Shown one piece after another: positions 64 through 10,785 of a stretch of 14,759 nt of DNA. The translations under genes were made by a program, and so were the position numbers. The notes below the pieces were generated by a model. That model ran no database searches. It was given only the letters and a program-made list of their open reading frames with translations, and was not told the DNA's origin. This DNA is from Nannocystis sp. (GTDB lineage: Bacteria > Myxococcota_A > Polyangia > Nannocystales > Nannocystaceae), in contig JBGAUO010000119.1 of NCBI GenBank assembly GCA_044228605.1, forward strand, positions 1-14,759, in the 5' to 3' direction. The number at the start of each line of letters is the position of its first letter. Position 1 is the first letter of the stretch.

Positions 64-1683
64 TCACGGGGCGTACTTGGTGAGCCAGACGTCGGCGAAC
101 TGGCCGACGCGGTACTCCTCGCCGGCGGCGTAGATGTTGCCGGTCTTGTCGATGGCGACGGCGCGGGCGATGTCGTTGCCGGCGTCGACGCCGTCGTGGA
201 TCTGCGTCCACAGCTCGCCGCCTTCGGGGTTGTATTTGCGGACCCAGGTGCGGGCGAAGTCGTTGGCGGTGTACTCCTCGCCGACGGAGATCAGGTTGCC
301 GGTGAGGTCGAAGGCGACGCCGTGGCCGATGTCGTTGTCGCCGCCGTCGCTGTCCTGGATCTGCGACCACAGCTCGGAGCCGCCGGCGCTGTACTTGGCG
401 GTGAGGATCGCGGACAGGCCCGCGACCTCGTAGACCTCGCCGGAGAGGCCGATGTTGCCGTCGGCGTCGATGGCGATGCCGTGCCACAGGTCGTTGCCCT
501 TCATGTGGTCGGCGCTGTGGGTCCACAGCTCCTTGCCGGCGGCGGAGTACTTGCGCAGCCAGAGGTCGGCGAGGCCGATCGGGACGTAGATGTTGCCGGC
601 GACGACGAGGTCGCCGTCGGCGGTGAAGGCGACGGCGTTGCCGGCGTCGTTGCCGGCGTTGGCGTCGAAGCTGTCGCTCCAGATCTCGACGCCGTCGGGA
701 TCGAGGAGGCCGGTCCAGACGTTGTGCAGGCCGATGAGCTTGTACTCCTCGCCGGTGACGGCGATGTTGCCCTGCGGGTCGACGGCGACGCCGAAGGCGC
801 GGTCGCCGAAGCCGGTCCCGCCGCTGTGGGTCAGCTGCCACACGGGCTTGCTGTCGGGGCCGAGCTTGAGGAAGAGCATGTCGGCGCCGTTGCCGGCGAC
901 GTTGGTCTCACCGACCATGACGAGGTCGTTGTCGGGGGTGACGGCGACACCGTAGAGGATGTCGGTGCCGTTGGTCTCGCTGTTCCAGGCGTAGCTCCAC
1001 AGGATGTCGCCGGCGGGGCTGTACTTGCGGGCCCAGGCGTTGGCGTTCTGGCCGACGACAAACTCCTCGCCGACGATGATCACGTTGCCCTCGGCGTCGA
1101 CGGCCGCCCCGTGGGCGCGGGCGTCGCCTGCGTCGTCGCCGGGGTAGTACTGCGTCCACAGCTCGGAGCCGGAGAGGATGCAGTCGACGTTGCAGCCGTC
1201 GCCGTCGACCTGGTTGCCGTCGTCGCAGGCCTCGCTGCCGTTGACGATGGTGTCCTGACAGTGCGGGCCGAGGGCGCTGCAGTCGGGGGCGCAGCCGCCG
1301 TAGCTGCCGTCGTTGGTGCCGTCGTCGCAGATCTCGCCCTCGCCGATGTTGCCGTCGCCGCAGACGGTGTTGGGGCACTCGCAGGGGCCAAAGCCGGCGC
1401 CGGCGGGGTCGCAGACCTGGACGCCGCTGTGGTCGGGGTCGCACATGCAGGGCTGCTGCTCGTCGGGCTGGCAGACGGGGTCACCGCTGCTGCCGCTGTT
1501 GCTGTTGCTGTTGCTGTCGCTGGTGGTCGGGACGTCGCCGGTGGGGCTGTCGGTGGTGCCGTCGGTGCTGTCGGTGGTGCCGGTGCCCGAGGCGGAGGCG
1601 CTGGCGGATGCGGTGACGGAGCTGTCGTCGCCACAGGCGGTGAGGAGCAGGGCGGTGGCGAGGGCGACGTGGGAGCGAGACAT
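64..1683 (-). CDS. Secreted lipoprotein with Myxococcus-type cysteine-rich repeats and C-terminal beta-propeller repeats. Start is placed at the ATG at 1683; the ORF track extends to a GTG at 1692.
   Basis: From the ATG at 1683 the N-terminus reads MSRSHVALATALLLTAC|GDD, a classic lipoprotein signal peptide with a lipobox Cys. It is followed by a Ser/Thr/Gly/Asn-rich linker. Next come several CxxDxxxxxxC / CGDGxxxxGExCDDGN units, matching the Myxococcus cysteine-rich repeat (TIGR02232-like). After that there are about eight repeats of the form ELW..Y.....D.A.AVA.D..GNI.V.GEEY, typical of SBBP-type beta-propeller repeats. Amino-acid composition is balanced, unlike the overlapping shadow ORFs. 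Confidence 0.8.
   Translation of the reverse strand: MSRSHVALATALLLTACGDDSSVTASASASASGTGTTDSTDGTTDSPTGDVPTTSDSNSNSNSGSSGDPVCQPDEQQPCMCDPDHSGVQVCDPAGAGFGPCECPNTVCGDGNIGEGEICDDGTNDGSYGGCAPDCSALGPHCQDTIVNGSEACDDGNQVDGDGCNVDCILSGSELWTQYYPGDDAGDARAHGAAVDAEGNVIIVGEEFVVGQNANAWARKYSPAGDILWSYAWNSETNGTDILYGVAVTPDNDLVMVGETNVAGNGADMLFLKLGPDSKPVWQLTHSGGTGFGDRAFGVAVDPQGNIAVTGEEYKLIGLHNVWTGLLDPDGVEIWSDSFDANAGNDAGNAVAFTADGDLVVAGNIYVPIGLADLWLRKYSAAGKELWTHSADHMKGNDLWHGIAIDADGNIGLSGEVYEVAGLSAILTAKYSAGGSELWSQIQDSDGGDNDIGHGVAFDLTGNLISVGEEYTANDFARTWVRKYNPEGGELWTQIHDGVDAGNDIARAVAIDKTGNIYAAGEEYRVGQFADVWLTKYAP
1486..1524 (-). repeat. Imperfect hexanucleotide microsatellite (GCTGTT)n inside the lipoprotein gene, encoding the (Asn-Ser)n part of the low-complexity linker.
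   Basis: Three perfect GCTGTT units occupy 1495-1512, flanked by the degenerate units GCTGCT, GCTGTC and GCTGGT. Read on the coding (minus) strand this gives AACAGC repeats, i.e. SNSNSNS in the protein. Confidence 0.5.
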
Positions 1684-1696
1684 CGCCCGCACGATA

Positions 1697-4120
1697 TCAC
1701 GCGCTCGCGGGGAGGCTGAGGGGGCGGGCGCGGCCGACCTCGGGGTGGTCGCTCAGGATCTCGTCGAAGGCGACGGGGTTGGCCTCCTTGATGGCACCGC
1801 CGGGGGCGTCGGGGCTGCCGATGAGGGCCACGACGCCGCGGACCGAGCCGTAATAATTGCTGCTCGCGTGGTCGACGTCGTCGATGCAGCGGCGGACCAG
1901 GGAGCGTGAGAGGCGGGGCAGGGCCAGCATGTCGAGGGCCTGCTCCCACAGGCCGTCGAGCAGGTTGGGGTCGGCGGGGAATTCGAGCAGGCCGGCGAGC
2001 AGGAGGAGGAGGCCTGCACGCTGGCCGCCGCGGGTGTCGAGCGGGGCGTCGGCGAGGTAGCCGAGATCGACGGCGCGCCAGTAGGCGTCGGCGGCGATGA
2101 GCAGGCGCTTGAGCTCCTGGGCGCTGTGGGCCAGGCTGGCGTGGAACATGACCTCGGCGCGCAGGCTGTCCTTGCCGCGCGGGTCGGGGATGTAGCGGAC
2201 GACGGCGGGGGCGCGGCCGAGGTCGACCAGCGGGCCCGGCCGGGTGGGCTTGCCGGCCGGGACGTCGCGGGGCGGGTCGACGGCGTCGTAGAAGCCGGCG
2301 GCGGCGAACACGTAGAAATTCTCGGCCTGGCCGGGCAGGCCGTCCCACAGCTCGGAGTACTGGGCGACGCGGTTGAGGCTGCCGGCGGCCCAGTTGAGGC
2401 CGCGGGCCGCGTCGCCGCCGATCTGCGAGGCGGCGACGCCGGGGCTCTTGGGGGTCGCAGAGTCGCGGATGGCCTCGGCGATCTCGACGACGCGGAGGTC
2501 GAGGAAGCCGTCGTAGAAGTCGGCCTTGCCGTCGCGGTTGATGTCCTCGTAGCGGGCGACGACGGCGGGGTGGGCGGGGCCGATGAACTGCACGAAGTCG
2601 GGCGAGCGGCTCTGCTTGTGGTGCCACTGCGCCTTGCGCAGCCGGACGTCGATCGCGGCGAAGTCCTCGCTGGCGGCCATGCCCCGGAGGATCGCCATGA
2701 AGCAGTCGATGCCCTCGCTGGCGGTGGTCTCGTCGTTGGCGCCGGTGTTGAAGTAGGTGCTGTCCCAGGAGGAGTAGATGTCGGCGTCGGGGAACTGCCG
2801 CGAGATCGCGAAGCGGGTGGTGAGGCCCGCGCACTGGCAGTTCATCATCAGCTTGTAGCCGACCTGCGTGACCTGGGTGAGCGCGGCCCGCATGTCGAAG
2901 GCGCCGAGGTTGGCGTGGCGGCTGATGAGGAGGCCGGTGAAGTAGGCGTTGCCCATCTCCGTGTTCTCGTCGCGCGGCGAGGCGGCGCGGGCAAACAGCT
3001 GGATCGTCTGACCCGCGGGGCCGGTGAAGGGGGCTTGCAGGACCTGATAGCCGTCGCCCCACGGGAGCGGGCTTGCGGGGGCGCCCTCGGGGGTGGGGAT
3101 CTTGGTGAAGCCGTACTTGGTCTGCAGGATCTTGAGCTCGCCGGGGAAGAACTCGGGCGCGGAATTGAGGACAAAGCGCCAGGGGCCGGTGAGCTCGGCG
3201 TAGGGCGGGGCGGCGCGACGAAGGCCGCGCAGGAGCGCCTCGGCCTGCTTCTGATCGTCGGGGCGCAGGGCCGGGCCGCGCATCGCCAGCAGCGAGATGG
3301 CGTGGGCCCGCAGCTCGGGGCGCGCGCCCGGGCCGGTCTCGGCGGCGATCAAGGCGAAGATGCGGGCGGCGGCCTGGTCGGCGACGGCGCGGAAGCTCGG
3401 GTCCTTGAGGACGGTGGCGACGATGTGTGAGAGGACGGTGAGGGCGGCGGAGCGCAGCTGGGCGGCGTCGATCGGGTCGATGTTGGCGGCCCCGGGGGCG
3501 GCGGCTGTCAGGATGGCGTTGAGCTGGGCGAGCAGGGCCTGGGCCTGGGTCGCGCTCAGATGCTCGGGGCGCAGGGCCTCCTCGGGGTGGAAGGGGCTGG
3601 CGGGGAACAGGCACTCGAAGCTGGTCGTGCGCCGGGTCGAGACCCAGCGGGCGGCGGTGACGAGCACCGGGAGGGCGTCGAGCCACACCGGGGCGGGGCC
3701 CGCGGCGTGGCCGGAGAGGGTGCCGTCGGCGAGCAGGAAGAGGGGAGGGGCGCCGTTCACGGAGGCGGTGAGATCGAGGGCGCTGCGCGGGGGCTCGGGG
3801 GTCGCGGTCGGGTGCGGGACCTTCCCGCCGATCGCCGAGAGGGTGCGGCGCACGCTGGTGCTGCGCCCGGCGAACTGGACCTGCACGCGCTTGCCGAGGG
3901 CGAGGGCGAGGACGTTGCGGGCCTCGCTCGGGGTCGGGCTCAGCTGCACGTGGTAGTCGCGCTCGCCGAGCAGGAGCAGGTGCAGGCCGGCGGCGGCGCG
4001 GGCGGCGTTGAAGCTCTTGCGCGCCGCGGAGCCGCTGGCGATGAGCTCGGCGGGGAAGGTGTGAATGACCGCCACAAGGCCGTCGTGGTTGCGTACCTGG
4101 ACTTCGAGACGATTCGCCAT
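1697..4120 (-). CDS. Hypothetical protein, 807 aa, with no family I can recognise. The 13-nt spacing suggests it is co-transcribed with the downstream lipoprotein gene.
   Basis: Long ORF with balanced, non-repetitive composition, whereas the alternative frames are Arg/Pro-rich or Gly/Ala-rich. The ATG at 4118-4120 is preceded by GAGGG five to six nt upstream. The stop at 1697 lies only 13 nt from the lipoprotein start. Confidence 0.7.
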   Translation of the reverse strand: MANRLEVQVRNHDGLVAVIHTFPAELIASGSAARKSFNAARAAAGLHLLLLGERDYHVQLSPTPSEARNVLALALGKRVQVQFAGRSTSVRRTLSAIGGKVPHPTATPEPPRSALDLTASVNGAPPLFLLADGTLSGHAAGPAPVWLDALPVLVTAARWVSTRRTTSFECLFPASPFHPEEALRPEHLSATQAQALLAQLNAILTAAAPGAANIDPIDAAQLRSAALTVLSHIVATVLKDPSFRAVADQAAARIFALIAAETGPGARPELRAHAISLLAMRGPALRPDDQKQAEALLRGLRRAAPPYAELTGPWRFVLNSAPEFFPGELKILQTKYGFTKIPTPEGAPASPLPWGDGYQVLQAPFTGPAGQTIQLFARAASPRDENTEMGNAYFTGLLISRHANLGAFDMRAALTQVTQVGYKLMMNCQCAGLTTRFAISRQFPDADIYSSWDSTYFNTGANDETTASEGIDCFMAILRGMAASEDFAAIDVRLRKAQWHHKQSRSPDFVQFIGPAHPAVVARYEDINRDGKADFYDGFLDLRVVEIAEAIRDSATPKSPGVAASQIGGDAARGLNWAAGSLNRVAQYSELWDGLPGQAENFYVFAAAGFYDAVDPPRDVPAGKPTRPGPLVDLGRAPAVVRYIPDPRGKDSLRAEVMFHASLAHSAQELKRLLIAADAYWRAVDLGYLADAPLDTRGGQRAGLLLLLAGLLEFPADPNLLDGLWEQALDMLALPRLSRSLVRRCIDDVDHASSNYYGSVRGVVALIGSPDAPGGAIKEANPVAFDEILSDHPEVGRARPLSLPASA

Positions 4121-4290: not shown

Positions 4291-5289
4291 TCAGGCGAGT
4301 AGTCTGTCGAGCCAGGTCGCGAAACCAGGCTCGCGAAACAGGCGGCCGAGGTGGTGGTCCAGCTCGGCGTGCAGCGGGGCGCGCCAGGCCGCGACGAGGG
4401 CGGGGTCCAGGAGCTCGCCGAGGCTGCGCGACTCGAGCTCGGCGAGCAGCGAGCGCAGGACGCCGGTGGCCTCGTCGGCGAGGCGGTCCCAGTGGGCGAG
4501 GGCGTGGGCGGCGGCGTGGAGGTCGCTGGCGAGCGCCCGGGGGTCGAGCTTTTGTCGCTCGCGGAGGAACACGGGCTCGGGGAGGGCGAGGACGGAGCGG
4601 AGGGCGTCGCCGCGCCAGGCGGCCATGTCGCCGGCGAAGCGCGGGTCGGTGGTGCGCTCGACGATCATGTCGAGGGCGCGACCGAGAGCGTCGTCGACGA
4701 AGTTGCGGACGCGATCCTCGAGCTGGCGCTCGACCTCGGCGCCGACGACGGAGGCGACGCCCTTGGCGACGCCCATGAGCTTCGAGCGGATGCCGGCGCC
4801 GGGGATCCAGCCGGTGTCGGGCATGGCGGTGCGCAGCCGGGTGGCGAAGTCGAGGAGGGTGGTCTGCAGGACGCTGCGCACGAGCGCGCGCATGCCGGCG
4901 TGGTCGACGGCGGCGCGCACGAGCTCGCGGCTGGGCGTGAAGGGGCGGCGCAGGGCGGTCTGGAGGGCGCGCTGGAGCTCGGGTGGGAGGCGATCGGCGA
5001 GCGGTCCTGGGCGGGCGCGCGCGGCGGCCTGGCGGCGGGTGATCACGGCGGCGAGCTGCTCTGGATCGATCGCGGCGACGCTGGCTCGCAGGCCGGCGAT
5101 GAAGGCGGGGACGATGCGCTCGGGCGCGATGAACTCGCGGACGGGCGTGGCGAGCACGGCGTCGAAGATCACGCCCGCGAGCTCGGTCGCAAACGCAGGC
5201 TGGTCGCGCAGGCGCGCGAGGGCATCGGTGGCAGACGACACGCCGCTGCTATAGCAGGCCTGGCACGGGCTGAGATACGCTGGGTTCAC
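4291..5289 (-). CDS. Hypothetical protein, 332 aa, predicted helical, unknown function. The GTG start is uncertain.
   Basis: The minus-strand frame has a balanced composition (L/A/R/D/E/F/I), while both overlapping plus-strand frames are Arg/Ser-rich or Gly-rich shadows. A GTG start at 5287-5289 has no obvious RBS, so the true start may lie downstream. The gene sits upstream of the 807 aa gene, separated from it by a 170 bp spacer. Confidence 0.55.
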   Translation of the reverse strand: MNPAYLSPCQACYSSGVSSATDALARLRDQPAFATELAGVIFDAVLATPVREFIAPERIVPAFIAGLRASVAAIDPEQLAAVITRRQAAARARPGPLADRLPPELQRALQTALRRPFTPSRELVRAAVDHAGMRALVRSVLQTTLLDFATRLRTAMPDTGWIPGAGIRSKLMGVAKGVASVVGAEVERQLEDRVRNFVDDALGRALDMIVERTTDPRFAGDMAAWRGDALRSVLALPEPVFLRERQKLDPRALASDLHAAAHALAHWDRLADEATGVLRSLLAELESRSLGELLDPALVAAWRAPLHAELDHHLGRLFREPGFATWLDRLLA

Positions 5290-5345
5290 GCACGCGGGCC
5301 CGGTGTTTGAGAACGCCGGGCCGAGACACGCGTTCGCCCGCCGCC

Positions 5346-6146
5346 ATGCAAAGCAGCACGCTCCCGATCGCCAGCCCGTGTCACGAGTCGTGGGACGCCA
5401 TGTCCGGAGAGGCGACGCAGCGCTTCTGCGGGGTGTGCCAGAAGGATGTGCACAACCTCTCGGCGATGGGTCACGACGAGGCGCAGGCGCTGCTGCGCGA
5501 GAAGGCCGGCCAGCACCTTTGTGTGCGCTACTCGGCGGAGTCGGACGGGACGCTGCGCTTTCGTGACCTGGTGCCGAAGGCGAGCCTGACGCGGCGGATC
5601 GTGCGGACGGCCTTCGCGGCGACGATGCTGGCCGCGTGTGCGCCGCACGGGGAGGGGCCGGCGCAGGAGCTCGGGCAGGCGATCATCGACTCGATCCGCG
5701 AGGCGACGGTGCCGACCAGCGATGGTGGTTGTGACTACACGACCGGGCCGTTCACGACCTTCCACCTGCCGCCGGGACACGTGCTGTGCAGGGACGCGGG
5801 GCCGTCGGTGGCGATCGAGGCGGGGCCGTACCAAACGCGGCACAATCCGCCGCCGCCGCCGCCGTTGATGGGCGCGGCGCCGTTGCGGGTGCAAGACTCG
5901 CCGCCATTGATGCGGATGGGCGAGGCGATGGCGGTGCCCGAGCACACGAGCCCATTCGAGCCCTGCGACCCCAAGCCGGGGTTCGCTCCGCCGCCGCCGC
6001 CGCTGCCGGGTGAGGTCCGCGACCAGGGGGAGATCGCGGTCCCGAGGCCGCCGGAGCGGCCGCCGGAGCGGGAGTTGATGGGCGCCGTGGCCGCGCCGGA
6101 GCCGGAGGCGGAGTTGATGGGGAAGATCGCGGCGCCGCAGGATTGA
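5346..6146 (+). CDS. Paralog A (266 aa): N-terminal Cys-rich putative zinc-ribbon domain, a single hydrophobic (membrane-anchor) segment, and a Pro-rich C-terminal tail with (E)LMG motifs.
   Basis: Start is set at the first ATG (5346) because it gives MQSSTLPIASPCHESWDAM..., which aligns with the paralog B N-terminus MHSDSVKIESPCHESWDAM.... Conserved cysteines sit in C-x15-C-x2-C...H-x6-H...C. A hydrophobic stretch IVRTAFAATMLAACAP follows. The conserved block GGCDYTTGPFTTFHLPPGHVLC comes next. The tail carries runs of five CCG (Pro) codons and repeated LMG. The ORF track's TTG start at 5307 would add 13 poorly conserved residues. Confidence 0.7.
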   Translation: MQSSTLPIASPCHESWDAMSGEATQRFCGVCQKDVHNLSAMGHDEAQALLREKAGQHLCVRYSAESDGTLRFRDLVPKASLTRRIVRTAFAATMLAACAPHGEGPAQELGQAIIDSIREATVPTSDGGCDYTTGPFTTFHLPPGHVLCRDAGPSVAIEAGPYQTRHNPPPPPPLMGAAPLRVQDSPPLMRMGEAMAVPEHTSPFEPCDPKPGFAPPPPPLPGEVRDQGEIAVPRPPERPPERELMGAVAAPEPEAELMGKIAAPQD

Positions 6147-6188
6147 TGGGCGCGAGAACCTCGGCGAGCGGCGCACGTTGAGGCAGGC

Positions 6189-6914
6189 ATGCACAGCGAC
6201 AGCGTGAAGATCGAGAGCCCGTGCCACGAGTCGTGGGACGCGATGCAGGGCGAGGGGGCGCGGCGCTTCTGCGGGGTGTGCCAGAAGGACGTGCACAACC
6301 TGTCGGCGATGGGCCACGACGAGGCGCGGGCGCTGCTGGCCGCGTCGGCGAAGCAGTCGCTGTGTGTGCGTTACACGAGCGAGGCCGACGGGACGCTGCG
6401 CTTTCGCGATCTGGTGCCGCGGGCGAGCCTGACGCGGCTGCTCGTGCGGACGGCGTTTGCCGCGGCGGCGCTGGCTGCCTGTACGCCGCACGGCGCGGCG
6501 CCGCTGCAGGGGCTCGGGGAGTCGATCATCGAGGCGCTGCGCGAGCAGGCGACGGCGAGCGAGGCCGGCGGCTGCGACCTGACGACGGGGCCGTTCACGA
6601 CCTTTCACCTGCCGCCGGGGCACGCGCTGTGCCAGGGGGTGGGTGAGCCGTGGCGCCCGCTGGAGGCGCCCGAGGTGCCGGAGGGGCGGGTGCCGGAGAT
6701 CGCGGACCAGCCGGAGCGCGAGGTGCAGGGGCTGCGGGTGGCGGCGCCGGAGCCGAAGCCAGAGATGGTGCCCTGCGATCCGCTGGCCGACGAGGACGGG
6801 GCGAAGGTGGTGCCGCCGACGCCGCGGCCGCCGACGCGAAAGATGGGGATGATGAAGCGGCCGCCGATGAAGGAGACGATGGGCGACGTGAAGCTGGCGG
6901 GCGACGAGCTTTAG
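6189..6914 (+). CDS. Paralog B (241 aa) of the upstream gene, with the same N-terminal Cys-rich domain and hydrophobic segment but a divergent Pro/Glu-rich tail.
   Basis: ATG at 6189 with GAGG five nt upstream. The first roughly 150 codons are about 85% identical at the nucleotide level to paralog A, for example the shared run gggacgctgcgctttcg and the conserved TTGPFTTFHLPPGH block. The tail diverges entirely (PEVPEGRVPEIADQPEREVQ ... RKMGMMKRPPMKETMGD). A 42 bp gap from paralog A suggests co-transcription. Confidence 0.75.
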   Translation: MHSDSVKIESPCHESWDAMQGEGARRFCGVCQKDVHNLSAMGHDEARALLAASAKQSLCVRYTSEADGTLRFRDLVPRASLTRLLVRTAFAAAALAACTPHGAAPLQGLGESIIEALREQATASEAGGCDLTTGPFTTFHLPPGHALCQGVGEPWRPLEAPEVPEGRVPEIADQPEREVQGLRVAAPEPKPEMVPCDPLADEDGAKVVPPTPRPPTRKMGMMKRPPMKETMGDVKLAGDEL

Positions 6915-6933
6915 GGTCGGCAGCCGGAGTGAG

Positions 6934-6968
6934 CTGTTCTTTGCGACCTGTTCTTTGTGACCTGTTCC
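6934..6968. repeat. Tandem 14-nt direct repeat CTGTTCTTTG(C/T)GAC, two copies plus a partial third copy (CTGTTCC), followed by an imperfect hairpin, in the convergent intergenic region between paralog B and the kinase.
   Basis: The sequence is gctgttctttgcgac ctgttctttgtgac ctgttccggaggacag. It sits in an AT-richer 81-bp gap between the two convergent stop codons at 6914 and 6996. The last unit overlaps the inverted repeat ctgttcc gg aggacag. Confidence 0.5.
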
Positions 6969-6995
6969 GGAGGACAGGATGGGGTGGCCGCGAGA

Positions 6996-10019
<3,024 letters not shown>

Positions 10020-10186
10020 CTCGCCCCGGTCGATGCGGGTGACGTCGGAGTCGTCCACGCCAGGATGATCCCCGAAATCCGCGGCTTTGGTGGGGGCGAT
10101 CCTGAACACCGGCGCAGGCGCTCGCTGCTTGCGTTCGCGCGGGGCCGCGGAGTAGGGTGGGCCCCCGTTATCCCCAGGAAACACTC

Positions 10187-10768
10187 GTGAAGCCGATCCA
10201 GATCTGTCAGCACCTTGGTCAGGGACACATCGACGCGTACTACGACGAGCTGTCCGGCAAGGAAGTCCGCGTCGTGCTCAAGGCGGGCGGTTGTAGCGTC
10301 AACGTCCCGGAGACCGCGTACACCCAGGCGGCCCGCCGTCGCGCGTGGCGCAAGCGTTTCGACGCCGAATTCACCGGGGGTAACGACCAGCTCGCGCTCG
10401 CGTTGCTGCTCGAATGGTTGATGCGCCACCACCGGAGCATGCTGGTCGACTACCTCGACTTCCTCGGCGTGAAGCACCGCCAGGGCGAGACCGACGAGGA
10501 CTTCTGCGCGACGCGCGAGGAGTCCAAGCTGCGCGAGGGCGTGGCGGAGCTGCTCAAGAAGTACCCGCCGGCGCACGTGGCGACCTACCTGCTGCTGGTC
10601 GGTCACCTGCAGGAGACGCCGGTGTTCGATCAGACGCCCGAGGTGCTGACCTCGCTCGGCATGGCGGCCGACGCCGCGGCGAAGTACGTGGAGGAGCACA
10701 AGGCCAGCTACAAGCCGAGGGCTCAGCGCTCGCCGACGCCGATGATCACCACCGCTCCGGCGGCGTGA
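10187..10768 (+). CDS. Hypothetical protein (193 aa from the GTG at 10187), unknown function. It is the first gene of a plus-strand cluster that ends with the MVP homolog.
   Basis: AGGAAA lies 6 nt upstream of the GTG at 10187. Composition is balanced and non-repetitive (e.g. LALALLLEWLMRHHRSMLVDYLDFLGVKHRQGETDEDF). The gene is divergent from the kinase. The ORF track's longer GTG start at 10157 is possible but lacks an RBS. Confidence 0.55.
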   Translation: MKPIQICQHLGQGHIDAYYDELSGKEVRVVLKAGGCSVNVPETAYTQAARRRAWRKRFDAEFTGGNDQLALALLLEWLMRHHRSMLVDYLDFLGVKHRQGETDEDFCATREESKLREGVAELLKKYPPAHVATYLLLVGHLQETPVFDQTPEVLTSLGMAADAAAKYVEEHKASYKPRAQRSPTPMITTAPAA

Positions 10769-10785
10769 GTCAGGAGACGCACGCG

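Follow-up and report, generated by a model that had tools for sequence, protein, structure and literature searches.

Two adjacent genes in a myxobacterial genome raise the question of what kind of protein begins with a conserved cysteine domain, runs into a short hydrophobic segment and ends in a proline-rich tail. They lie in a 14,759-nucleotide (nt) stretch of Nannocystis sp. DNA (contig JBGAUO010000119.1; this whole stretch is called the window hereafter), which has a G+C content of ~72% and finds its nearest relatives in Nannocystis genomes and metagenome bins (Myxococcota). The original prediction, made from the sequence alone, saw in these genes a recent tandem duplication of a membrane-anchored, putatively zinc-binding protein with rapidly diverged tails. 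That observation is real but partly misdescribed, and its interpretation is partly supported. In both proteins, A and B, sequence and structure prediction give the same order of parts: an N-terminal domain with four conserved cysteines (the Cys4 domain), a hydrophobic segment with a lipobox at its end, a small folded unit enclosed between two cysteines, and a proline-rich tail with copies of a methionine-glycine (MG) motif and one PCDP motif. Judged by its sequence, the hydrophobic segment resembles a signal peptide that is cleaved off, which would make the Cys4 domain an unusually large cytoplasmic extension ahead of the signal.

As originally proposed, genes A and B are, judging from their sequences, clear paralogs: the two open reading frames (ORFs) lie on the same strand 42 nt apart, and their proteins align at BLASTP E=1e-76 with 58% identity over 209 amino acids (aa). 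The ATG at 5346 taken as the start of gene A agrees with the starts of its orthologs (P0001, 96% identity). The heads of the two genes align without gaps over the first 150 codons, and both contain the C-x15-C-x2-C...C spacing and an identical TTGPFTTFHLPPGH block; amino-acid identity is 66% over 160 residues. At the nucleotide level, identity was 80% for the initial 300 nt and 78% when 450 nt were compared, short of the ~85% that had been claimed for roughly 450 nt. The described layout, in which a cysteine-rich N-terminal domain without its own signal peptide precedes a hydrophobic segment and a proline-rich disordered tail, held up.

A profile of the N-terminal 75 residues, in which both window proteins are seed members, was scored against 1.84 billion cluster representatives (clusters at 50% identity) and matched 15,831 of them at E ≤ 1e-3 and 6,419 at E ≤ 1e-10, the top 150 relatives falling between E=1e-38 and 1e-21. 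A genome scan with one genome per species and a narrower alignment returned 79 genome loci. Its matches within the Myxococcota came from Nannocystis, Plesiocystis, Enhygromyxa and Polyangiaceae, and those in other phyla from Armatimonadota, Planctomycetota and many Bacteroidota (Flavobacterium, Chitinophaga, Hymenobacter, Chryseobacterium). In public records, the relatives go by 'hypothetical protein' or 'carboxypeptidase-like regulatory domain-containing protein'. When A, B and 20 relatives were scanned against Pfam and NCBIfam, the N-terminal domain fell into no family, and the literature, of which our coverage was incomplete so that a description may exist elsewhere, yielded no account of the domain or the family. 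These sequence searches place A and B in a very large, unnamed, multi-phylum family of predicted cell-envelope proteins.

Seven positions of the N-terminal domain are invariant in 80 diverse sequences (C12, M19, C28, C31, V35, C59 and G68), and the family cysteine spacing C-x15-C-x2-C-x27-C is kept in both A and B. Of the cysteines and histidines originally put forward as metal ligands, the former therefore stood and the latter did not, as His13 and His36 vary freely across the same 80 sequences. AlphaFold predicts a compact domain (predicted local distance difference test, pLDDT, 86; predicted template modelling score, pTM, 0.73) in which C28 and C31, the only CxxC pair, lie on either side of a beta-hairpin turn, in the manner of a zinc knuckle, with C12 and C59 isolated. 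Searches of the PDB by single sequence and by profile gave nothing significant for this domain, and a structural comparison of its model with the PDB found no solved structure alike. A zinc-ribbon fold, the check suggested with the original prediction, thus gained no profile or PDB match, and the pattern of cysteines led us to reject a ribbon of the GltJ/ZitP type; instead of a classical zinc ribbon, the region is a Cys4 domain containing a single zinc-knuckle-like element. In A and B it lies within ~30 residues of the single hydrophobic segment, which the MG-motif tail follows, and since it has no export signal of its own it is expected to stay in the cytoplasm. From the four invariant cysteines and this location we infer metal binding, probably of zinc. 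Polyangiaceae-type relatives (locus L022; proteins P0107, P0116 and P0127) carry a further predicted coiled coil of ~60 residues before the Cys4 domain, likewise without a signal peptide, which fits a cytoplasmic location.

Given this arrangement, much depends on the nature of the hydrophobic segment. The uncharged stretch after R87 reads TAFAATMLAA in A and TAFAAAALAA in B, is followed directly by Cys98 and, at 10-11 residues, is too short to span a bilayer. It ends in the lipobox L-A-A-C, of which A96, A97 and C98 are invariant in 59 family members. A strict lipobox pattern, [RK]-uncharged(5-18)-[LVI][ASTVI][GAS]C, matched RTAFAATMLAAC in A and RTAFAAAALAAC in B, and was found in 77 of 81 family proteins compared to 8 of 277 control ORFs from the same loci. 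How the segment ends differs between phyla: among 18 Myxococcota loci, 17 had a lipobox and none a small-x-small-Gln motif, whereas among 55 Bacteroidota loci 7 had a lipobox and 38 had small-x-small-Gln (chance expectation, ~3.5 of 55), preceded by a hydrophobic core of median length 13 residues (as in RIPWLKYFFQIALPAFFISKASA before QK). A glutamine at the new N-terminus is the Bacteroidetes 'Q-rule' for substrates of signal peptidase I (PMC5837995, PMC10653852). Several Bacteroidota members moreover have, at their C-terminus, a sorting domain for type IX secretion (TIGR04183, scoring 42 bits where the cutoff is 23), which can function only if the protein leaves the inner membrane. That the end of the segment tracks the signal-peptidase rule of each phylum is good, if indirect, evidence for a signal peptide in many members, including A and B. 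The single transmembrane anchor of the original prediction is therefore doubtful, as ~11 uncharged residues with an invariant lipobox are what a cleaved signal peptide would present, and a cleaved signal peptide is what that prediction itself had named as fatal to its anchor.

A Tat signal peptide (S/T-R-R-x-F-L-K) was also considered for the segment and rejected, the corresponding residues being TRRIVR in A, TRLLVR in B and mostly TRKIVR elsewhere, so that the arginine pair is not conserved. In four loci (L024, L025, L027 and L028, from Plesiocystis pacifica and three Enhygromyxa salina strains), the same-strand gene directly upstream of the family member encodes an unusually long protein of 808-832 aa, and in L024 and L027, the two that were scanned with Pfam, this protein has a signal peptidase I (Peptidase_S26) domain at residues ~124-329 (E=1e-38). 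Four S26 matches were found among the scanned neighbours of family members. The position of such a gene may simply reflect gene order shared between related species, or may tie it functionally to processing.

Downstream of the segment, the full-length AlphaFold model of A contains blocks between residues 111 and 150 at pLDDT 85-93, with a helix at 106-120 and strands at 121-123, 129-132 and 138-141. All 59 family members keep G128 and C129, and conservation of C148 among them is at least 90%; the two cysteines, which bracket the folded unit, plausibly form a disulfide. The tails are indeed proline-rich (26% in A, 20% in B), but to call them unalignable was an overstatement, as those of the 59 members share ordered islands: an MG motif, then R/K-M-G-E-A-x-A-x-P-E and P-F-V-P-C-D-P-x-P-G-F-A-P-P-P-P, then 1-3 further motifs x-M-G-D-[I/V]-A-x-P and a C-terminal K-M-G-K-x-x-x-P. 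The general shape of the motif is hydrophobic-M-G-[D/E/K]-[V/I]-A-x-P, with the consensus P-x-x-[V/P]-[L/T/V]-M-G-[E/D/K]-[V/I/P]-A-[P/A]-P, and some copies have QG in place of MG. There are five motifs in A, the last two of which (RELMGAVAAPEP and AELMGKIAAPQD) are products of a 39-nt internal duplication, and three in B. In 133 tails of distant relatives, 284 MG dipeptides were observed compared to 42 expected, and 53% of tail methionines are followed by glycine. By sequence comparison, the conserved islands show purifying selection on parts of the tail.

Bacteroidota relatives also carry the MG motif, often straight after the predicted cleavage site (ASA, then QKMGKVA). Other Bacteroidota members have a domain that matches the first 84-90 positions of the SusC/RagA model, with [L/M][G/E]E[V/I]VV[T/I] at the domain end, the position of the TonB box in SusC. 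Bt1763, a SusC protein, has this box (82-DEVVVTG-88) directly after its N-terminal extension domain (PMC7782687). The motif core of A and B, G-[D/E]-[V/I]-A, loosely resembles these N-termini of SusC-type TonB-dependent transporters; the window proteins differ from them in having no SusC-like domain or barrel and in repeating the motif 3-5 times in a disordered tail. A TonB-box-like motif that docks by its beta-strand is, from these sequences, a reasonable lead only.

In the mechanism that we propose, and to which we give about even chances on the sequence data, A and B would be lipoprotein precursors with a cytoplasmic Cys4 domain ahead of the signal peptide and a mature unit carrying a tail of docking motifs. 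The hydrophobic segment would be no permanent anchor but a signal peptide of type II (lipoprotein), with Sec exporting everything downstream of it. Cys98 would be lipidated and signal peptidase II (LspA) would cut between A97 and C98, yielding a lipid-anchored, extended periplasmic protein whose repeated MG motifs would be docking peptides that probably bind through beta-strand addition, as a TonB box does. The Cys4 domain, probably with zinc bound, would be left on the cytoplasmic face together with the signal peptide, where it could control or localise export, or become a cytoplasmic signal released when the signal peptide is degraded. More tentatively, and with more doubt than confidence on our side, the Cys4 domain may represent an unrecognised class of 'pre-signal' domains, that is, conserved metal-binding modules placed before a cleavable Sec signal (type I or II depending on the phylum) and kept on, or released from, the inner membrane face. 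Each exported molecule could then leave one cytoplasmic token behind, or the domain could gate or localise the export of envelope proteins bearing TonB-box-like motifs.

Compared to known systems, A and B fit lipoprotein precursors (Lgt/LspA substrates) on every local feature that the sequence offers, with positive residues, a short uncharged stretch, the L-A-A-C lipobox and a polar, proline-rich sequence after the cysteine, but they fail on the position of the lipobox, since a folded 75-residue Cys4 domain replaces the usual n-region of 2-7 residues and puts the lipobox cysteine at 98. Extended export signals exist elsewhere: autotransporters have an extended signal peptide region of ~25 residues. 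The vertebrate 'NtraC' long signal peptides are two-domain (PMC2447879) and, as one of the nearest concepts, resemble A and B in placing an extra N-terminal module, maybe with a function of its own, before an ordinary export signal. The module of A and B differs from such long or extended signal peptides in being a conserved, cysteine-coordinated globular domain present in four bacterial phyla, and it matches nothing in Pfam and is not similar in sequence to such extensions. Another near concept, and a precedent for a second life after cleavage, is offered by lipoprotein signal peptides that are processed further into signalling peptides by signal peptidase II and then Eep/RseP (PMC10202637). 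GltJ of Myxococcus xanthus, like A and B a myxobacterial protein, and ZitP of Caulobacter share with them a small, cysteine-coordinated cytoplasmic N-terminal module on an envelope protein. The zinc ribbon of GltJ, a protein-binding switch, uses two CxxC pairs (C5, C8, C28 and C31; PMC11135422), in contrast to the single CxxC and two isolated cysteines of A and B, which also have no GYF domain and no structural match in the PDB.

The question of when the two copies arose can be answered from the same locus in other genomes. The tandem pair recurs in L004, L005/L006/L009 and L010, where the neighbours of an upstream copy of ~270 aa and a downstream copy of ~241-274 aa are, as in the window, the 332-aa gene and the gene for a TPR-containing protein kinase. 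A neighbour-joining tree built from the heads joins A to the upstream copies of L004 and L005 and B to their downstream counterparts, while the downstream copy of L010 falls into a third clade. Head identity is 85% between A and its L005 ortholog, 80% between B and its own (P0029) and 97% between B and P0049 of L004, compared to 71% between A and B. These identities and the separate A-type and B-type clades indicate that the tandem duplication is old, predating the split of these Nannocystis lineages, and not recent as had been proposed. Dating by the synonymous substitution rate (dS) was rejected as unreliable and the tree used instead: dS between A and B (0.31-0.47) is not above that of the orthologs (0.29-0.48), because of the strong third-position G+C (GC3) bias at 72% G+C. 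The closest relative, L001 (JGI Ga0558126_00316, 10001-10795), has a copy A with a head 98% identical, standing alone between a 316-aa gene and the kinase gene; from this arrangement, the absence of copy B reads as a secondary loss. Named Nannocystis species have a single copy at this locus.

Further paralogs occur on another contig of the L009 genome (L012) and as proteins P0082-P0085, with longer tails and tandem PGFAPPPPP repeats (four copies in L012). In Bacteroidota loci (L039, L040, L041 and others), family members often stand in same-strand runs of 2-5 genes of similar size. Carboxypeptidase-regulatory-like domains were found in 10 of 74 immediate neighbours (42 loci, four phyla), and the most frequent neighbours in Bacteroidota are further family-like proteins with these domains. 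Tandem arrays of paralogs thus seem, from gene content, to be a common habit of the family, and the gene duplication itself is ordinary.

Several points weigh against the lipoprotein-precursor reading, and some of them favour its chief rival, in which the protein stays intact as a permanent, single-pass anchor with its N-terminus inside and couples the periplasmic tail to the cytoplasmic Cys4 domain as an anti-sigma- or GltJ-like signalling adaptor. The lipobox cysteine at residue 98 comes after a conserved 75-residue domain, while canonical rules expect it at ~15-40, and AlphaFold draws a 20-residue helix over residues 78-97 which, at low confidence (pLDDT 59-66), could represent a membrane anchor. 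In other phyla, Planctomycetota among them, many relatives have 19-25 uncharged residues and no lipobox, like plain anchors, and a lipobox-like motif appears in just 55 of 141 distant representatives under a looser pattern (32 of 142 under the strict one). A search of the Nannocystis family for mature parts lacking the Cys4 domain brought up none but the truncated gene call P0258, and this tight coupling is more easily explained if the polypeptide stays whole. The TonB-box likeness of the MG motif is one of position and a few residues only, and the 25 Pfam families listed for genes next to family members included no TonB, ExbB or ExbD. Positive charges before the segment and acidic residues after it suit an N-in anchor, as does the constant pairing of the N-terminal domain with an MG-motif tail, and GltJ sets a precedent for a cytoplasmic zinc module acting as a switch on an envelope membrane protein. 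This alternative nevertheless has to accommodate the short stretch and invariant lipobox of A and B, Bacteroidota relatives that obey the Q-rule and in some cases carry type IX sorting domains, and the lack of a sigma factor or other regulator as a conserved neighbour, and we consider it possible but somewhat unlikely. A ZAS-type (zf-HC2) anti-sigma factor with a sigma partner encoded elsewhere was rejected and is the least probable of the identities weighed here. The order of a cysteine domain, a hydrophobic segment and an extracytoplasmic region is that of membrane anti-sigma factors, yet every defining feature tested fails. There is no HxxxCxxC and the histidines are not conserved. Pfam scans matched zf-HC2 (PF13490) in neither A nor B at E ≤ 0.1, nor in 10 relatives at E ≤ 1. 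In agreement with the original prediction, no sigma factor was found among the scanned window ORFs or the called genes of orthologous loci, and no sigma-70 family domain among the listed families of the 74 neighbours.

The remaining alternatives concern what the two ends of the protein do. Instead of structural zinc, the four cysteines might hold an iron-sulfur cluster or form a redox switch for redox or iron sensing, since they are invariant and lack the double-CxxC spacing of zinc ribbons, and a PDB sequence search touched the iron-sulfur protein WhiB6 at a non-significant E=0.23. That match disappeared with the profile, the zinc-knuckle-like turn at C28 and C31 points the other way, and 3 of 10 relatives gave weak matches to a GATA-like zinc module (KDM6; E=0.006-0.05, below the curated cutoff), so we regard this option as improbable. 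Copper(I) binding by the tail methionines, in the manner of the Met-rich repeats of periplasmic copper proteins, would suit the Met-rich end of the B tail (KMGMMKRPPMKETMG) and the methionine at the invariant motif core. Most motifs, however, contain just one methionine, and the glycine behind it is as invariant and leads into hydrophobic-Ala-x-Pro, which has more the look of peptide docking, and no copper-resistance genes lie nearby, making copper a very unlikely ligand. Just as little probability attaches to a recent duplication followed by positive diversifying selection on the tails. The tails do diverge much faster than the heads, and alter also through internal repeat duplication: the ratio of non-synonymous to synonymous rates (dN/dS) reaches 1.25 for the tails of B orthologs and an apparent 1.8 between the A and B tails, which are 35% identical. 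Those values come from gapped alignments and a dS compressed at 72% G+C, as does the 0.35-0.75 for the tails of A orthologs, so that diversifying selection on the tails is not demonstrable from them; the conserved motif islands speak against such selection, and the separate clades with orthologs in several genomes against a recent event.

The features of the locus are collected in Table 1. The 332-aa gene next to gene A has BLASTP identities of 48-83% to the gene at position -1 in L009, L010, L016-L018 and L020, and the 807-aa neighbour is 65-86% identical across Nannocystis and inverted in the named species. Conservation of both within Nannocystis only says little about function; the 332-aa gene appears from these comparisons to be a conserved neighbour within this genus alone, and they do not show a part for it in the system. 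A promoter and terminator scan of 5150-7050 found nothing.

Table 1 Features of the A/B locus and of the surrounding window (positions in the window; aa, residues of the respective protein)
Feature	Position	Strand	Remarks
542-aa protein gene	64-1692	-	
807-aa protein gene	1697-4120	-	no Pfam or NCBIfam family match
332-aa gene	4291..5289	-	no known family (no Pfam or NCBIfam match); divergent, 56 nt from gene A
Gene A	5346..6146	+	266 aa plus stop; upstream-type paralog
A, N-terminal Cys4 domain, aa 1-75	5346..5570	+	C12, C28, C31, C59; predicted cytoplasmic; profile matches, AlphaFold
A, signal-peptide-like segment TRRIVRTAFAATMLAAC, aa 82-98	5589..5639	+	positive n-region, 11-residue h-region, lipobox L95-A96-A97-C98
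A, small folded unit, predicted extracytoplasmic, aa 106-150	5661..5795	+	helix and three strands; C129, TTGPFTTFHLPPGH block, C148
A, proline-rich disordered tail, aa 151-266	5796..6143	+	pLDDT 49-71; proline 26%
A, five MG/QG motifs of the tail	5859-5894, 5907-5942, 6015-6050, 6069-6104, 6108-6143	+	coordinates confirmed by translation
A, PCDP motif of the tail	5961-5972	+	translation
A, internal 39-nt tandem duplication, 1.9 copies	6062..6137	+	Tandem Repeats Finder: period 39, 78% matches, score 94
Gene B	6189..6914	+	241 aa plus stop; downstream-type paralog
B, N-terminal Cys4 domain, aa 1-75	6189..6413	+	invariant residues as in A
B, signal-peptide-like segment TRLLVRTAFAAAALAAC, aa 82-98	6432..6482	+	ends in lipobox LAAC
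B, small folded unit, predicted extracytoplasmic, aa 106-150	6504..6638	+	gap-free alignment to that of A; structure inferred from the model of A
B, proline-rich tail	6639..6911	+	QG motif 6717-6752; PCDP 6771-6782; MG motifs 6834-6869, 6870-6905
14-nt tandem repeat and short inverted repeat	6934-6967		
840-aa protein gene	12196-14718	+	

Three further features of the window deserve mention. In the gap where gene B and the kinase gene converge sits a 14-nt tandem repeat (CTGTTCTTTGCGAC, 2.4 copies) followed by a short inverted repeat (CTGTTCCGGAGGACAG); the 14-nt repeat is present in the near-identical L004 and absent from L005 and L001. The 542-aa protein encoded near the start of the window has a lipoprotein-like N-terminus (LLLTAC) and Ser/Thr-rich linkers, with a sub-threshold match to the DUF4215 cysteine-rich repeat and weak matches to beta-propeller repeats. 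The 840-aa protein encoded towards its other end matches MVP_shoulder (E=2.4e-28), Vault_3 (E=3.7e-9) and SPFH/Band 7, and its gene holds the same position in related Nannocystis loci; judging from these domains, it may be a bacterial relative of the eukaryotic major vault protein.

Read conservatively, the pair is an ordinary old duplication within an uncharacterised family. The size of that family is notable, with ~15,800 clusters at 50% identity, genome matches in four phyla and no name in the domain libraries searched, and its members bring together conserved features rarely found in one protein: a cytoplasmic Cys4 domain, a segment that ends by the signal-peptidase rule of the respective phylum, and a short periplasmic motif kept in myxobacteria and Bacteroidota alike. 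Should the segment indeed be cleaved, the members would be bacterial precursors in which a folded domain stands before the signal peptide; standard predictors, looking at the N-terminus only, would miss them, and the fate of the domain left behind after export would become a question in its own right. The family would then consist of soluble or lipid-anchored proteins that show TonB-box-like peptides in the periplasm.

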